DNA of 64,000 bases, from positions 122,946,001-123,010,000 of the forward strand of contig OX597817.1 in assembly GCA_951406725.2 (NCBI GenBank), given 5' to 3'. Below, one piece after another: positions 4,316-53,996 of this stretch (within the stretch, counting starts at the first letter, position 1; every line of letters begins with the position of its first letter). Source of the stretch: Octopus vulgaris. Taxonomy: Eukaryota. Made by a program: the position numbers and the translations under genes. A model generated the notes under the pieces. That model saw only the letters and a list, made by a program, of their open reading frames with translations, had not been told where the DNA came from and did no database searches.

Positions 4316-4730
4316 TATTTTTTATTGCCCACAGGGGGCTAAACATAGAGGGGACAAACAAGGACAGACAAAAGGATTAAGTCGATTACATCGACCCCAG
4401 TGCGTAACTGGTACTTATTTAATCGACCCCGAAAGGATGAAAGGCAAAGTCGACCTCGGCGGAATTTGAACTCAGAACGTAGCGGCAGGCGAAATACCTA
4501 TTTCCTTACTACCCACAAGGGGCTAAACACAGAGAGGACAAACAAGGACAAACAGATTAAGTCGATTACATCGACCCCAGTTCGTAACTGGTACTTAATT
4601 TATCGACCCCGAAAGGATGAAAGGCAAAGTCGACCTCAGCGGAATTTGAACTCAGAACGTAACGGCAGACGAAATACGGCTACGCATTTCGCCCAGCGTG
4701 CTAACGATACTGCCAGCTCGCCACCCTTAG
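4316..4730 (-). mobile_element. SINE family A dimer with 14-bp TSD
   Basis: Two ~180-bp units; ACAGTCACATTATA at 4302-4315 and 4731-4744. Confidence 0.9.
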
Positions 4731-5365: not shown

Positions 5366-5950
5366 AGGTCGGCGAGCTGGCAAAATCGTTAGCACGCCGG
5401 GCGAAATGCGTAGCCGTGTTTCGTCTGCCGTTACGTTCTGAGTTCAAATTCCGCCGAGGTCGACTTTGCCTTTCATCCTTTCGGGGTCGATAAATTAAAT
5501 ACTAGTTACGCACTGGGGTCGATATAATAAACTTAATCCGTTTGTCTATCCTTGTTTGTCCTCTCTGTGCTTAGCCCCTTGTGGATAGTAAAGAAATAGG
5601 TATTTCGTCTGCTGCTACGTTCTGAGTTCAAATTCCGCCGAGGTCGACTTTACCTTTCATCCTTTCGGGGTCGCTAAATTAAGTACCAGTTACGCAGTGA
5701 GGTCGATATACTTGACTTAATCCGTTTGTCTGTCCTTGTTTGTCCTCTCTGTGTTTAGCTCCTTGTGGGTAGTAAATAAATAGGTATTTCTTCTGTCTTT
5801 ACGTTCTGTGTTCAAATTCTGCTGGGGTCGACTTTGCCTTTCATCTTTTCGGGATCGATAAATTAAGTACCAGTTGCGTACTGGGGTCGATCTAATCCCC
5901 TGGCCTCTCCTCCCCCCAAATTTCGGGCCTTATGCCTAGTGTAGAAAAGA
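5366..5950 (+). mobile_element. SINE family A trimer
   Basis: One tRNA head followed by three bodies; units 1-2 end in tail type 1, unit 3 in tail type 2 (CCCCAAATTTCGGGCCTT.TGCCTAG). Confidence 0.9.
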
Positions 5951-6881: not shown

Positions 6882-6990
6882 GTATATTGAGAAAAAAGGA
6901 GGCCGCCAGAATTATGGGAAAAAATGATTTATTAATTGATCATTATTAGCGCGTTCGTTGGTTTTTCGAACTTGTTAAATAAAATTGTGA
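6882..6990 (-). repeat. Inverted copy of a Penelope-type terminal repeat (pairs with 9544-9650)
   Basis: Reverse complement aligns, with scattered mismatches, to 9544-9650 (AGAAAAAAGGAGG.CGCCAGAATT..CATTATTAGCGC.TTC.TT.GTTTTTCGAACTTGT). Confidence 0.8.
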
Positions 6991-6994
6991 TGTG

Positions 6995-7692
6995 GAAACA
7001 GGTTGTTCATTTATATAAAACAATCTACTGAACACACTTCACCCATCAATCAAATTTACGACAGAATCCACTTGCAATGAATTACCATTCCTGGATAGCC
7101 ACATAAAAATACAGAATTCCACAGTCGCAACAGACATATTTTAAAAAAAACCTGACACACCAATGTTTAAATTTCTACTCTTGCCATCCATCACACATCA
7201 AAAGGAACATCCCATACAGCATGGCTAGACGCATCTCTGCTATAGTGACTGACCCCAAAATACGTGAAGTCCGACTCAACTAACTCAAAGGCTTCCTATC
7301 AATGCAGAAATGGGGGAATTTAAAAGGCGATGGAACTGAGCATCATCCAACTACGGACACTTAAGGAAAAATTCAAGAGCGGATTTTCGTTCAAAATAAA
7401 TGCAGATATGAACTGCAAAACGCAGATCCTCATATCCTGCTTTACCTGCCTCAACTGCAAAGAAAATTACATTGGCGAAACAAATAATTCTCTCTGCCAA
7501 CGTGCAAGAATCCACAGGCAGCATATCTGACAAGAATAATTACGTAAGATTCCGTTAAGCAAGCACCTGGAAATATGCAGCGACTGAAAATTCAAAATCT
7601 TTCCCTTTTACAAATGTTCACGGGATGATCCACAAATCCCGAAAAACAATGGAGCTAAACTTTATCAAAAAATTCTCTCCAATATTTGAATG
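6995..7692 (+). pseudogene. Penelope-like element RT-thumb and GIY-YIG endonuclease remnant
   Basis: Frameshifted LPFLD..TDIF..FYSCHPSHIKRNIPYSMARRI, then CKTQILISCFTCLNCKENYIGETNNSLCQRARIHRQHI..KHLEIC..MELNFIKKF; stops and deletions present. Confidence 0.85.
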
Positions 7693-7790
7693 TTTGAAAG
7701 AAAAGCAGAAAATTTGCATTTTTGATACTGAATGTAGCTCCAATATTAGAAACATGATACGCATCTCTATAAATATTCAGGTATATTTAT

Positions 7791-9650: not shown

Positions 9651-9937
9651 GACACTCCTTGTTTGTTTTCGTCGGTTTCCTTCTATGTCTCCACTGTCAT
9701 ATCTTTGTTTTCAAATTTGATCCTTCATAAATCCTAAATTTTAGTTTGGAACTTATGGGAACAACTGTCTTTGAAGACTCATATTGTTGTTGAAGCCTCG
9801 AAATGAATATTTTTGATAAAATGAAAATTCCTTAACGGATTAATTCCGGTATAATTTTTATTTTTAAATGAAGAAGTGATGTTGTTGGTATGGCTACTTG
9901 GAACGCTATAAGCCTTACACTAAAAACTCTGTGATTA

Positions 9938-10516
9938 AGGCAGCGAGCTGGCAGAAACGTTAGCACGTCGGGCTAAATGCTTAGCAGTATTTCGTCTGTC
10001 GCTATGTTCTGAGTTTAAATTCCGCCGAGGTCGACTTTGCCTTTCATCCTTTCAGGGTCGATTAAATAAGTACCAGTTACACACTGGGTCGATATAATCG
10101 ACTTAATCCGTTTGTCTGTCCTTGTTTGTCCTCTCTGTGTGTAGCCCCTTGTGGGCAGTAAAGAAATAGGTATTTCGTCTGCCGCTACGTTCTGAGTTCA
10201 AATTCCGCCAAGGTCGACTTTGCCTTTCATCCTTTTGGAATCGATTAATTAAGTACCAGTTACGCACTGGGGTCGATATAATCGACTTAATCCGTTTGTC
10301 TGTCCTTGTTTGTCTCATCTGTGTTTAGCCCCTTCTGGGTAGTAAATAAATAGGTATTTCGTCTGCTTTTACGTTCTGTGTTCAAATTCCGCCGATGCCA
10401 ACTTTACCTTTCATCCTTTTGGAGTCGATAAATTAAGTACCAGGTGCGTACTGGTGTCTATCTAATCAACTGGCCCCACCCCAAATTTTTGACCTTGTCC
10501 CTGAAGTAGAAAGGAA
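9938..10516 (+). mobile_element. SINE family A trimer
   Basis: Same head + tail1 + tail1 + tail2 architecture as 5366-5950. Confidence 0.9.
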
Positions 10517-18009: not shown

Positions 18010-18728
18010 TACCTTTCTCTTCTCTTTCCTCTGATTCTTTGGTCTAATCTTCCACAACCCTCCTATTTCTTTGTCTCGCTCTGCACTCACAGGTCGCTCT
18101 TCGACACCCATCCCTTCTCCTCTCTGATTCCTTCTTTCTCTCTCTTCTCGCTCTTTGTCGCGTTTGTCCCTCCTCTCTCTCTCTCCTCTCTCTCTCTCTT
18201 CCGTTGCTTCTCTTTCTTTTCTTTTCTCTCTTCTCTGTCACGTGACTGCTGGCCGAAATCTGCCTTTCAGCTTCTGACCAGCGTCGTGTTAACATCGTTG
18301 TTTTTCGTCCGCCGCTATAGGCATCGCCGATAAGGCTCCTTTCCTTGCGCCAGAGAAAAAATTTGTTTGCTTGTTATCAGTCGTAAGACACTTGTTGTTG
18401 TTTTCACCGTTAATGCTTCTGTATTTCATGTTTCTGTATTCCATTATTTTTTTGTTTTTTTTATATTCGTCCCTTTTGCTGTCCTGGTGTCCGTATGCAT
18501 TCGATCCTTCTTCCAGGAAATCTACGCTCCCAGCTTAGTTTTTCTAATGCTCGTTGCTTAGTTTTTCTTGGAGGGCTGGCCGTGATCTAGTAATCTCAAG
18601 ATTAATCAGCCGAAATTACTACGATGATCCGGTTCTTGACTGAAGACTGAGGGTTTCGAATGTCCTGTCCGTGTTTATTGTATCGTCTTCTAAGAGTTAT
18701 AGTTCTTGTCCATGTTGTATTTTTCTAC

Positions 18729-49460: not shown

Positions 49461-50260
49461 TATGAAAATGTATTTATAAAATTATAAAGCTCGTGCATAA
49501 TTGAGTCTTTGTTCTAACATACAGATACAAGCACTGATATATGTGTATACCTACTTAAATATATATGTAAGAATGCACAATGTAAGAGCGCACCTTAGAA
49601 GCAAGTCTGATGAAGTGTCACTCTAATGCTAGAAACTACGAATATTACGTAAGTTTTCATTTCGAAATTTTTGCGTAGTATGGCCTTGGAAGCAGAGTTG
49701 TTACAGAAATAATTGTGGATTTACTCTTCCTTAAATCCACACAACGATTTTACCGTCGTGAAATCAGTATTTTCTGCATCTGAAGAAGTTCGGTATTGGC
49801 CTGGAGTCCGACAGCATTGATAGCTCAAAACACGGGTTGAGTGCTGCTACCAGGACCTACCAGGTCCTGGTAAAGGTAGAGTAATGAACACTGGTGAAAT
49901 ATTGTCTTTGACAAGAGAAAAGATAGAAGAGAGGATAGATAGGAATACAGGAAGGGCGGCTAAGGCTTCTATTCGTTTTCACTGTCCTACCAGGACCTCA
50001 AGGAAAATTCTTTAACGGGTCTTTAAATATGAATTACAAATGTTTCCGTAACATCTCCATTTGCAACATTGGATTATTTACTCTTCGCGAAAAACATGTC
50101 ACAATATAATCGCTGTGAAACATGGATTTCCTACACCCGTAGCATTCTGGGTTTGACTTGGATCCCGACAGTGTTGTTAACTCAGTGTTAGGCTCGAGTG
50201 CTTCTCTGGAAATGCCCCAACTTCACACCCAGCCTGGCCTTAGCCATTTGCTTTCTCTCT

Positions 50261-50403
<143 letters not shown>

Positions 50404-50469
50404 AATAAATAAAACATATGCATATATACATACATATATGTACGTACCTACCGCTACATGTATATATAC

Positions 50470-50850
50470 ATGCATATATGGGTACAGGACACCAAAAAAA
50501 AAAACGTCGAACACAATGAGAAACAAAACCATAAATACAAAACCAAGGAAATGGACATTTTTCTTAAACAACGAAAAAATAGAGTACCGGACATACAAAA
50601 CAAGGAAAATTCCCCTTCTTCAGTCGCCTTTGTTTCATCTACTCCACGCATACATACATATATATATATGTATATAGATATGCATATGTAGGTACGGGAC
50701 GTCACAAAACGTGAACAACATCAAATACGAAAACAGAGTTGGGTACGCAGACAACGAGAGAAACAAATGGAAAACAAGACAAGCAACATAAAGAAAGACC
50801 CTTCATCAGTTGTCGGCTGTCCTTCTACCACTGATTTTGAGCATTCCCAA
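50470..50850 (-). mobile_element. Two truncated relatives of the 51.1-51.8 kb element in (TA)n
   Basis: Minus strand carries GGCGA-CTGAAGA-AGGGG (~50612-50628) and CCGACAA-CTGATGA-AGGGTC (~50797-50816). Confidence 0.7.
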
Positions 50851-50893
50851 GTAAGTTTATTTTCACACCGAACCTGTCCTTAGCTATTTGCTC

Positions 50894-50986: not shown

Positions 50987-51259
50987 GTGTGTGTGTGTAT
51001 ATATATATGTGTGTATGTATATATATGTGTATGTGTATATATATATATATATATATACATATATATACATACACACACATATATATATACATACATGTAT
51101 GTACATACATATATATGTATACATATATGCATATATGGGTATAGGACGTCACAAAATATAAGCATGAAATACGAAAACAACAGGAAATACAAAGGTAAAC
51201 TTGGGTATGCGAACAACAAAAGACACAAATGGAAAACAAGACAAGTAACATAAAGAAAG

Positions 51260-51323
51260 ACCCTTCATCAGTTGTCGGTTGTTCATCTATTCCCCATTTC
51301 GAGCAGTTAACGACAATACGAGG
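51260..51323 (-). ncRNA. Candidate non-circularly permuted hammerhead ribozyme
   Basis: CCTCG-TA-TTGTCG / TTAACT / GCTC-GAAA-TGGGG / 14 nt / CGACAA-CTGATGA-A-GGGT. Confidence 0.65.
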
Positions 51324-51643
51324 CTTCGAAAAACAGTTGCTTCCGCGAGATTTGCGGAGGGTCAAATTTGGTAACAAAAACAGGACAGCGGTGACATACA
51401 AGGAAACTGGACGAAAACAAACATGGAGAGTTGATAAACCAGACAAGGTAGATTAATGAACGCTGGAAAAATATTGTCTTTGACAACAGAAAAGATAGAA
51501 GAGAAGATAGATAGGAATACAGGAAGGAATGCTAAGGCTTCTGTTTGTTTTCACTGTCCTGTTTGTGTTACCTATTTTGACCCTCCACAAAACTCCCAAA
51601 TTTTATTTAATTTGCTTTGCGGGAGCAACTGTTTTATCGAAAG

Positions 51644-51708
51644 CGTATATTGTTGTTAAATGCTCGAAATACGAGACTAGAAAAACAGCCAACAACTGAG
51701 GAAGGGTC
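51644..51708 (+). ncRNA. Candidate non-circularly permuted hammerhead ribozyme
   Basis: CGTA-TA-TTGTTG / TTAAAT / GCTC-GAAA-TACG / 16 nt / CAACAA-CTGAGGA-A-GGGT. Confidence 0.65.
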
Positions 51709-52505
51709 TTTCTTTATGATGTTTGTATTGTTTTCTATTTGTGTCTTTCGTTGTTCCATGTACTCGTGCTTTGTATTTTTTGTTGTACGCGTTTCATGAC
51801 GTTCTGTGCCCACATATGCTTAAATATATATATATATATATATATCTTTATATATACGTATAGATGTAAGTATGTACATATATGTATGTATATATGCATA
51901 TAAATAATACATATTATTTATATTATTTGATTGAACGCCACGCCTTCATTTCCAGGTAAGTTTAATTATGTGTGTGTGTGTATGTGTGTGTGTGTGCATA
52001 TATATACATGTTCGTTTGAAGGTAAGACGGAGTCTTATACGTATGCCTGTATGTATACGTATAGCATTAGAGCAATGACATAGACTAATATTCATACTGA
52101 TTCATGTACGTGTGATTATTTCTTCTTTTCAGCTTTTCTAAATGAATTACAGGTCCAAACTATTCCAGTGGATGCGGCAGTTTACTTTCTGAACTTGCAA
52201 GTGTGCCAAGTTATAGGAGTCCAGTTTTTCTTGTTTGGACAACTTCTGTTGTGTAGAAATCACGATATTTGCAGTTTGTGTAAACACGGAGTAAAGAAGA
52301 AAATTGTGAATAATACGTAGACAAGTTAGTGAAATGATACAAGAGTTGTCAATTATTGACGCAGAATATATCTGTTTCAGTAGAAAACTTTATAATTGCT
52401 GTTTATGCACAGGTTTTCCATGATCGAATGGACTTCAGTTGAATGCTTTCCAGCTCTTAATAGATACATATCTGAAAGCCTGCATCATTTACCGTTGACC
52501 ATGTT

Positions 52506-52573
<68 letters not shown>

Positions 52574-53207
52574 GCGTATATATATATTTTATGATTACCC
52601 GTCATTCAAAGATGAGGATTCAGTTGTTCGTTCAAGCGAAACACCAAGCAAGTTTCATACAGATGCGCATCCTTATCCTAATTAAAAGTTAGAATCTGCG
52701 ACACAAAGTAACAAGACTGTCTCCATTAACTATGTAAGTCCTAATAATTAAATAAATAAATAAATAAATAACGAAATATGGTGCCTCTACGTGGTCACTC
52801 AGCCTGCTAGTAGTAGTTGTCAAATCTTTCGCAAGTCATAGTTTACCATCTTAAAAAAGGATTAGCATGTAAGATAATGTAGTCCTGAGTGGAGTGCTTG
52901 AAGAAAAAGAAAGGATAGCCATAGAATGCCTTAGCACTTTAACATTTAAACTGGTCATATCCGGTCCAGATATTCTACCTGTTTTATGTTCAACCAACCA
53001 GATCCAGCTTCTCACACCTATCCTTCAATGTCATTCTACAAATAAGCAACAACATCCTCAAAATCTCAAAGCTATGATTTAAATGTATAATTAATTGAAA
53101 ACTGTGTGATTAAATATGCATTACATTTGTAGAATAATCTGACTACTGAAGGGTTAAATTAACGATATAATCGATACTTCTGGTCGTGCTGATATTGCTG
53201 GCAAGCA

Positions 53208-53996
53208 TACCTATTTCTTTACTACCCATAAGGGGCTAAACACAGAGAAGACAAACGAGAGCGGACAAACGGATTAAGTCGATTATATCGACCCTAGTGC
53301 GTAACTGGTGCTTATTTAATCGACCCCGAAAGGATGAAAGCCAAAGTCGACCTCGGCGGAATTTGAACTCAGAACGTAGCGGCAGACAAAATACCTATTT
53401 CTTTACTACCCACAAGGGGCTAAACACAGAGAGGACAAACAAGGACGGACAAACAGATTAAGTCGATTATATCGACCCTAGTGCGTAACTGGTACTTATT
53501 TAATCGACCCCGAAAGGATGAAAGCCAAAGTCGACCTCGGCGGAATTTGAACTCAGAACGTAGCGGCAGACAAAATACCTATTTCTTTACTACCCACAAG
53601 GGGCTAAACACAGAGAGGACAAACAAGGACGGACAAACGGATTAAGTCGATTATATCGACCCCAGTGCGTAACTGGTACTTATTTAATCGACCCCGAAAG
53701 GATGAAAGCCAAAGTCGACCTCGGCGGAATTTGAACTCAGAACGTAGCGGCAGACAAAATACCTATTTCTTTACTAGCCACAAGGGGCTAAACACAGAGA
53801 GGACAAACAAGGACGGACAAACGGATTAAGTCGATTATATCGACCCCAGTGCGTAACTAGTACTTATTTAATCGACCCCGAAAGGATGAAAGCCAAAGTC
53901 GACCTCGGCGGAATTTGAACTCAGAATGTAACGTCAGACAAAATACCGCTAAGCATTTCGCCCGGCGTGCTAACGTTTCTGCCAGCACGCTGCCTT
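53208..53996 (-). mobile_element. SINE family A tetramer (184-bp period) with ~18-bp TSD
   Basis: Units start at 53208, 53392, 53576 and 53760; TTGC(T/C)GGCAAGCATACCT at 53195-53212 and 53998-54015. Confidence 0.93.

Follow-up and report, generated by a model that had tools for sequence, protein, structure and literature searches.

The window, that is, the whole 64,000-nt stretch of Octopus vulgaris DNA analysed here, contains two 5'-truncated repeat copies that meet head to head, one of family A on the plus strand and one of family B on the minus strand, together with further copies of these and related families (Table 1). The two arms are 73% identical to each other; identity to the respective family is 96.7% for the plus arm (A) and 93.9% for the minus arm (B). 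A first look at their relatives gave 3326 and 2869 candidates, 40 of which were scored for each arm. According to a preliminary description of this DNA, both arms belong to one fold-back element and each of them holds all core strands of a hammerhead ribozyme. A check of the sequence confirmed the strands in both arms, but the single element did not hold up, as the arms represent subfamilies A and B, joined at this locus only. Among 41 matches the junction occurred only here and in a local duplicate at 49873-49988, and it is therefore best described as a local join of two subfamilies; a fold-back or TIR family was rejected. The head-to-head join is of a kind that Penelope-like elements make, and an inverted copy lies upstream in 4 of 30 family C loci and in 4 of 30 A/B/D loci.

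Table 1. Coordinates of the repeat copies in the window and of the predicted ribozyme parts in the plus copy
Feature	Positions	Strand	Remarks
Family A repeat, 5'-truncated	51541..51968	+	Comprises the motif, the 3' part, a (TA)n tract within the unit and, from about 51910 to 51968, the beginning of the following unit
Whole predicted ribozyme, plus copy (family A)	51579..51708	+	Almost undamaged; N7 = G and a single mismatch in helix Y
X', 5' strand of closing helix X	51579..51584	+	Pairs with 51703-51708, directly after A9
Hairpin Y	51585..51622	+	Abuts X' and Z' without spacer; mismatch at 51587 in the plus copy
Z', 5' strand predicted for the actual stem II	51623..51627	+	Pairs with 51661-51665; G51623 = G10.1, C51665 = C11.1
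W	51629..51635	+	Partner strand 51682-51688; positioned like the helix between stems I and II in type SGC
Block S	51644..51655	+	Stem III 5' strand (51644-51648), U16.1 (51648), H17 A51649 followed by the predicted cut, 5' strand of stem I (51650-51655)
Block G	51661..51673	+	Stem II 3' strand (Z), GAAA (51666-51669), stem III 3' strand
Block C	51690..51708	+	Stem I 3' strand (51690-51695), core CUGANGA (51696-51702), strand X
Family B repeat, 5'-truncated	51137..51540	-	Head to head with the family A copy
Minus copy of the motif (family B)	51259..51363	-	Same layout, damaged; U16.1 51318, H17 51317 followed by the predicted cut, stem I formed by 51316-51311 and 51277-51272, GAAA 51300-51297, core 51271-51265
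Third copy (B/D-like)	50690..50845	-	Core 50809-50803, G12 mutated
Family C copy	50395..50650	-	Young, top matches 94-98% identical; core 50623-50617
Duplicate of the head-to-head junction 51445-51560	49873..49988	+	Local, 91%
Family E copy, distant, same wiring	18497..18663	+	Core 18640-18646; predicted cut after 18595; direct stem II impossible
Family D copy, 5' half	9652..9805	+	Retains X', Y, Z' and W as well as blocks S and G; no longer has block C

The repeat element and its hammerhead strands

The element is a non-coding, Penelope-like tandem repeat of 820-850 nt with subfamilies A and B. Its copies are 5'-truncated and run into (TA)n, which is also found internally, where the unit continues into the head of the next one; the tandem period is 852 nt in family B, 821 nt in family C and 720-779 nt in family E. 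RT motifs were absent from the monomers, and their longest ATG ORFs measured 67-197 aa. The hammerhead-like RNA in a non-coding, Penelope-like repeat that had been described earlier is thus recovered, while the dependence on Penelope proposed with it is inferred, as an RT-coding partner of the family was not found: in the loci fetched, neither an RT ORF nor RT motifs were present upstream of any motif. GIY-YIG-like remnants in three loci (L054, L055 and L067) and at 6900-7700 (+) of the window were considered as traces of such a partner and rejected as separate insertions. The 8-kb Naiad-type loci had no shared stretch longer than 500 nt, and one 57-aa piece had no Pfam match above the cut-off. 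No start or end sites were seen in contigs from four runs presumed to be RNA, which, being contigs only, are uninformative on this point.

A 5'-splice-site-like motif lies in the unit head just past the (TA)n tract, at 51947-51967 (+) and 50842-50862 (+) of the window; the 5' regions of Penelope elements hold a motif of this kind. At another locus (L403, C1:79497500-79504500), five near-identical family E units stand in tandem with a period of 720-726 nt and (TA)n flanks, and this array is a good candidate for an active one. A repeat with units of 180-184 nt, which seems to be common and interspersed in the genome, stands in tandem at 4328-4677, 5419-5896, 9987-10471 and 53207-53947 of the window.

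All core letters of the hammerhead are present, namely CUGANGA, GAAA and UH with A15.1-U16.1. In the naming of Eckert the blocks follow the order S-G-C, and not the circularly permuted orders CGS, GSC or SCG (types I, II and III). This agrees with the preliminary description, which had assigned the order to none of the three types and had pointed to earlier reports of non-circular hammerheads: the order is that of type SGC (PMC10085705). The linker from stem I to stem II measures 1-6 nt in the parsed representatives. A permuted descriptor had been proposed for comparison with shuffled controls, and such a strict descriptor (UH, GAAA and CUGANGA in that order, a stem I of at least 5 bp and a stem III of at least 3+1 bp) matched the window three times, at 51696 (+), 51271 (-) and 18640 (+), against one match in 150 dinucleotide-shuffled windows. 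Among the 150 of 185 Rfam matches listed, a hammerhead was absent and only spurious miRNA matches on microsatellites were seen. Since standard descriptors and Rfam miss the motif, it is probably undercounted.

The change of stem I between the arms is as described earlier, and we agree with the cuts after A51649 and after 51317 as predicted positions. The accompanying comparison of stem III and N7 could not be maintained, because most relatives differ from the plus copy at N7 (G) and from the minus copy in part of stem III, both being private mutations. Across families H17 is A, C or U, while every stem changes. As a separate observation, three further loci (L409, L410 and L215) belong to a repeat family in which CUGAUGA is followed by a hairpin stem II and then by GAAA, which is the conventional hammerhead order.

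Stem II and the upstream scaffold

The preliminary description formed stem II directly, from GGGU next to the core and GCUC next to GAAA. In the plus copy this pairing contains two G.U pairs and amounts to -1.5 kcal/mol with a pairing probability of 0.0, since both strands have better partners upstream: helix X reaches -8.7 kcal/mol with a pair probability of about 1.0, and helix Z -5.4 kcal/mol. Stem II is most likely formed by 51661-51665 with the upstream strand 51623-51627. The upstream scaffold (51579-51635) comprises a strand of the closing helix, a hairpin, the stem II 5' strand with G10.1-C11.1 and a strand of the I-II helix, and because it would supply the 5' strand of stem II, the core appears to be opened between A9 and G10.1. 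As this strand lies upstream, the predicted motif starts near 51579, and for that reason the construct proposed earlier for transcription (51630-51720) would miss three helices. Helices X, W and III are part of the minimum-energy structure of both arms, and Y of that of the minus arm as well; folding without pseudoknots is unable to display Z or I together with X, W and III. Folding z-scores ranged from -2.2 to +0.15. The minus copy has an A at the G10.1 position (51342), a mismatch in W (51279) and a 23-nt deletion in the loop of Y, and its scaffold parse fails; having lost G10.1, it is probably impaired.

The layout was followed through the repeat families in 19 representatives, of which 13 were fully parsed and six decayed ones, the minus copy included, failed; for L117, the 18640 copy and the plus copy, three of the 13, the parser picked a poor X/Y, and the pairing within families is in this parse partly a matter of construction. 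No spacer separates X', Y and Z' from one another in families A, C1-C3, D, F1 and G. Helix Z starts with G10.1-C11.1 in every parsed family, and its remaining pairs vary. A direct stem II of four pairs is possible in A, C1-C3 and D, and of 0-2 bp in E, F, G and N. An uninterrupted block C, with stem II at most 1-2 nt after CUGANGA, was not found, the four weak pairs of A-D being outcompeted by X. Hairpin Y has two-sided changes in family D. The score of the upstream scaffold exceeded all 200 mononucleotide shuffles of the upstream 90 nt in 9 of 11 representatives and 199 of the 200 in the plus copy; that of the minus copy was always reached by shuffles.

In an alignment of 42 copies of families A-D (A1), 92% of the cells of helices X, Y, W, III and I were paired, versus 81% in shuffled (0/500) and 44-49% in slid versions, and two-sided cells numbered 149 versus 55, measures that are inflated by the relatedness of the copies. 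Helix Z, which MAFFT misregistered, was left out of these counts; for helix X, 98.6% of the cells were paired. The stems had been proposed for testing on aligned copies, and two-sided changes were indeed present in four of the six pairs of stem I and four of the five of stem III, but the number of pairs with such changes showed no excess over shuffles (157/500). A second alignment (A2), fitted to the structure, has two-sided changes in 16 of 19 pairs. A covariance model built from A1, and thus covering A-D only, found 7 of 20 distant-family loci at E values of 0.001-0.5 and missed the other 13. When an out-of-sample query was used from which blocks S and G had been omitted, the relatives supplied both, with stems I, III, Z and W compensated. 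Exact patterns matched the genome 2806 times for A/B/D, 1102 and 2048 times for family C and 394 times for the Naiad type, each against zero matches of the reversed control, and a generic pattern of GAAA followed by CUGAUGA (3028 matches versus 347 reversed) revealed families E, F and G. From these comparisons, we conclude that the same predicted wiring is present with different sequences in several repeat families of the genome.

Copy 5' ends and Naiad tails

The 5' ends of copies were sampled as the first matches along contigs C1-C2, with 52-70 per pattern. In family C, 22 of 70 copies start 6-37 nt after the predicted cut, five start in the preceding 100 nt and 43 extend further; about 60% thus run past the cut, as do 40 of 70 A/B/D copies. 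The rate ratio just 3' of the predicted cut was 6.9 in family C (p 1.5e-5, duplicates collapsed) and 2.9 in A/B/D (p 0.006, three ends at the anchor dropped); the Naiad type had no such step, with a ratio of 1.1 (p 0.47; 52 loci, in which some ten likely subfamily breakpoints were scored as ends). The pooled change point lies at +5, with -4 to +6 within 2 log units. A 3'-anchored family C sample, which overlaps partly with the first and comprises 70 loci (67 after collapsing), gave 0.0026 ends per nt at +140..+40, 0.011 at +39..0, 0.0003 at -1..-100 and 0.0041 at -101..-300, and the rate at +39..0 exceeded the 0.0026-0.0041 outside the motif (p 5e-5). Four copies (L158, L192, L221 and L413) begin at the cut within microhomology, and several have their start in the 5' strand of stem I. 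In the window, the two neighbouring copies that begin at 50845 and 50650, both on the minus strand, set in some 9 and 18 nt past the respective predicted cut. The clustering of 5' ends immediately 3' of the predicted cut, seen in two of the three family groups, is a hint of in vivo cleavage. Over the whole motif there was no excess of ends (21 versus 16 expected, p 0.14), so RT stalling or cDNA fold-back could redistribute them. The 100 nt upstream of the predicted cut show a deficit of 5' ends in family C (1 observed versus 10 expected, p 0.0004), which is not predicted by cleavage alone.

Naiads have been reported to lack a canonical hammerhead, and in the accessible part of that report eight of them, Naiad_Ovul and Naiad_Esco included, are marked as having a half core ('HHR_half_core'; Craig 2021, PMC8557442). 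Within its supplement, we considered the last 300-600 nt of 32 of the 54 consensus sequences and recognised by eye the split-core layout in five: Obim, Ovul, Esco (with imperfect Z and X), an Acropora entry and the entry before Naiad_Plae, which is probably Naiad-2_Movir. Octopus, squid, coral and box-jelly are thereby represented. By eye, the helices of the Acropora entry measure 8 (X), 6 (Y), 6 (Z), 10 (W), 13 (III) and 6 bp (I), and two cnidarian Naiads, from a coral and a box-jelly, keep all core letters where a direct stem II is impossible. Neither the split-core nor the CSG design was seen by eye in 26 of the 32 3' ends. The entry before Naiad_Lpol, probably Naiad_Asuum, appears to be a complete type CSG with an intact stem II and an 8-bp I-II helix, and in the 3' end of Naiad_Smim the blocks stand in S-G-C order, stems I and III are long and a long insert is present; both were read by eye from the supplement. 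Nematode entries there contain hammerhead cores with a long stem II. Several bivalve, Clytia and Morbakka entries share a conserved 3' motif of twister-like appearance. Naiads thus seem to carry several kinds of ribozyme.

Proposed ribozyme and relation to known systems

We consider it likely that the motif is a hammerhead whose core is split between A9 and G10.1 and clamped together again by two extra helices, and that it cuts the RNA of the 820-850 nt Penelope-like repeat. From 5' to 3', the strands would follow one another as X', hairpin Y, Z', W, III'-UH-I, Z-GAAA-III, W', I'-CUGANGA and X. With X stacked on Y and Z lying under the G12/A9 pairs, a four-way junction would rebuild the core, and W would do the job of the SGC stem I-II helix. 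Cleavage after H17 would convert tandem transcripts into unit-length and perhaps circular RNAs, as in retrozymes, and a Penelope-like RT/endonuclease, probably that of a Naiad, may copy the unit RNAs into (TA)n in trans. We also lean, with more reserve, towards a broader proposal: that this is an active permutation beyond the six considered possible, whose core is interrupted at A9/G10.1 and kept together by a four-way junction, and that it is the missing ribozyme of many cnidarian and mollusc Naiads and drives a class of retrozyme-like repeats that number thousands of copies in the genomes of animals.

In families A-D, the active form could instead be a plain type-SGC hammerhead with a weak direct stem II, X and Z being an inactive off-switch fold. 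The four direct pairs of A, C1-C3 and D would allow this, as type SGC has been validated experimentally (accessible text of PMC10085705), and X and Z' are alike in A-D, so both pairings exist. We nevertheless regard it as unlikely, given the energies of X and Z relative to the direct stem, the 0-2 bp left for the latter in E, F, G and N and the coral and box-jelly Naiads, in which it is impossible despite a full core; moreover, W fills the place of the stem I-II helix and follows Z', not X. Distinctly unlikely is a conserved fold that is non-catalytic, now or always, and acts as a recognition or template-end signal for the RT, with RT stalling or cDNA fold-back clustering the ends. Such a fold would be compatible with the missing whole-motif excess, the unexplained 5'-half deficit, the absent Naiad-type step and the majority of sampled copies that run past the cut, yet the core letters and H17 stay while the stems all change, the edge of the pile-up is at the predicted cut and several copies start within the stem I 5' strand.

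Assembly of the strands between tandem units or molecules, as in the dimeric minimal hammerheads of Penelope elements, would make a knotted monomer unnecessary. The repeat does occur in tandem (periods of 720-726, 779, 821 and 852 nt), and dimeric cleavage has been described for Penelope hammerheads in the accessible text of PMC4209133. However, stem III is full and non-palindromic (5-7 bp), each of the six helices is complete within some 130 nt, with constant spacing, X, W and III nest to form the minimum-energy fold of a single strand, and the canonical order would take three units, which makes this explanation highly improbable. If short motifs had come together by chance in a decaying repeat, the decay of single copies and their modest folding z-scores would be accounted for, but this has a negligible probability in view of the shuffle controls, the genome counts, the pairing in A1 and the recurrence of the same layout in unrelated sequences across phyla.

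If the split-core hammerhead is real, a core block of a ribozyme can itself be split, and RNA permutation reaches beyond the scheme of six orders. Non-circular hammerheads would move from anonymous metatranscriptome contigs to animal chromosomes, in thousands of copies. The published view of Naiads as proliferating without a canonical hammerhead would be revised, and a role of self-cleavage in Penelope-type transposition would become testable by one short transcription assay.

Octopus Naiad and window repeats can be compared directly. The 3' end of the octopus Naiad carries the split-core wiring and accounts for the 394 genome matches mentioned above. The window families encode no RT and have the wiring in common with the Naiad tail, but not the sequence, and a partner at the sequence level was not found in the loci fetched. 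The (TA)n targets and the tandem and inverted arrangements, including inverted upstream copies, are also shared (accessible part of PMC8557442).

In the accessible text of PMC10085705 (Eckert 2023), type SGC comprises 583 sequences, with validated cleavage, from metatranscriptomes only and none from the genomes of known organisms, and type CSG two metagenomic sequences only. The window motif resembles type SGC (HRIMA-1 and a variant) in the S-G-C order, the short I-II linker and the complete set of core letters, and in both an extra helix beside stem I', here W, joins stems I and II. In SGC, CUGANGA is directly followed by stem II, whereas here A9 is followed by the closing helix X beside hairpin Y, and the strands of stem II (5') and of the I-II helix lie 5' of block S. 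Type CSG has the same cyclic strand order, and opening it between A9 and G10.1 gives exactly the window order, but its block C is intact and has no X/Y clamp. In its predicted topology the motif thus corresponds to the SGC/CSG class after circular permutation at A9/G10.1, and Eckert's six orders do not include it. According to the accessible text of PMC4209133, Penelope hammerheads conserve G10.1-C11.1 and an extra base between positions 9 and 10.1, and the opening proposed here is at the very site that tolerates this base. Our literature search, mostly of sources other than subscription journals, returned no split-core and no non-circular hammerhead in animal retroelements, and PMC13725137 and bioRxiv 10.64898/2026.07.22.740005 treat the metazoan motifs as type I in their accessible parts. 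Non-LTR retrozymes and the minimal hammerheads of Penelope pLTRs (PMC4209133 and the bioRxiv preprint) are similar to the window repeats in the non-coding tandem and dispersed units, the single ribozyme per unit, the tie to Penelope-like elements, the 5'-truncated and inverted copies and G10.1-C11.1. As far as these sources go, retrozymes and pLTRs carry type I hammerheads with a mostly tiny, palindromic stem III that act as dimers, in contrast to the full stem III and the non-circular, split-core wiring predicted here.
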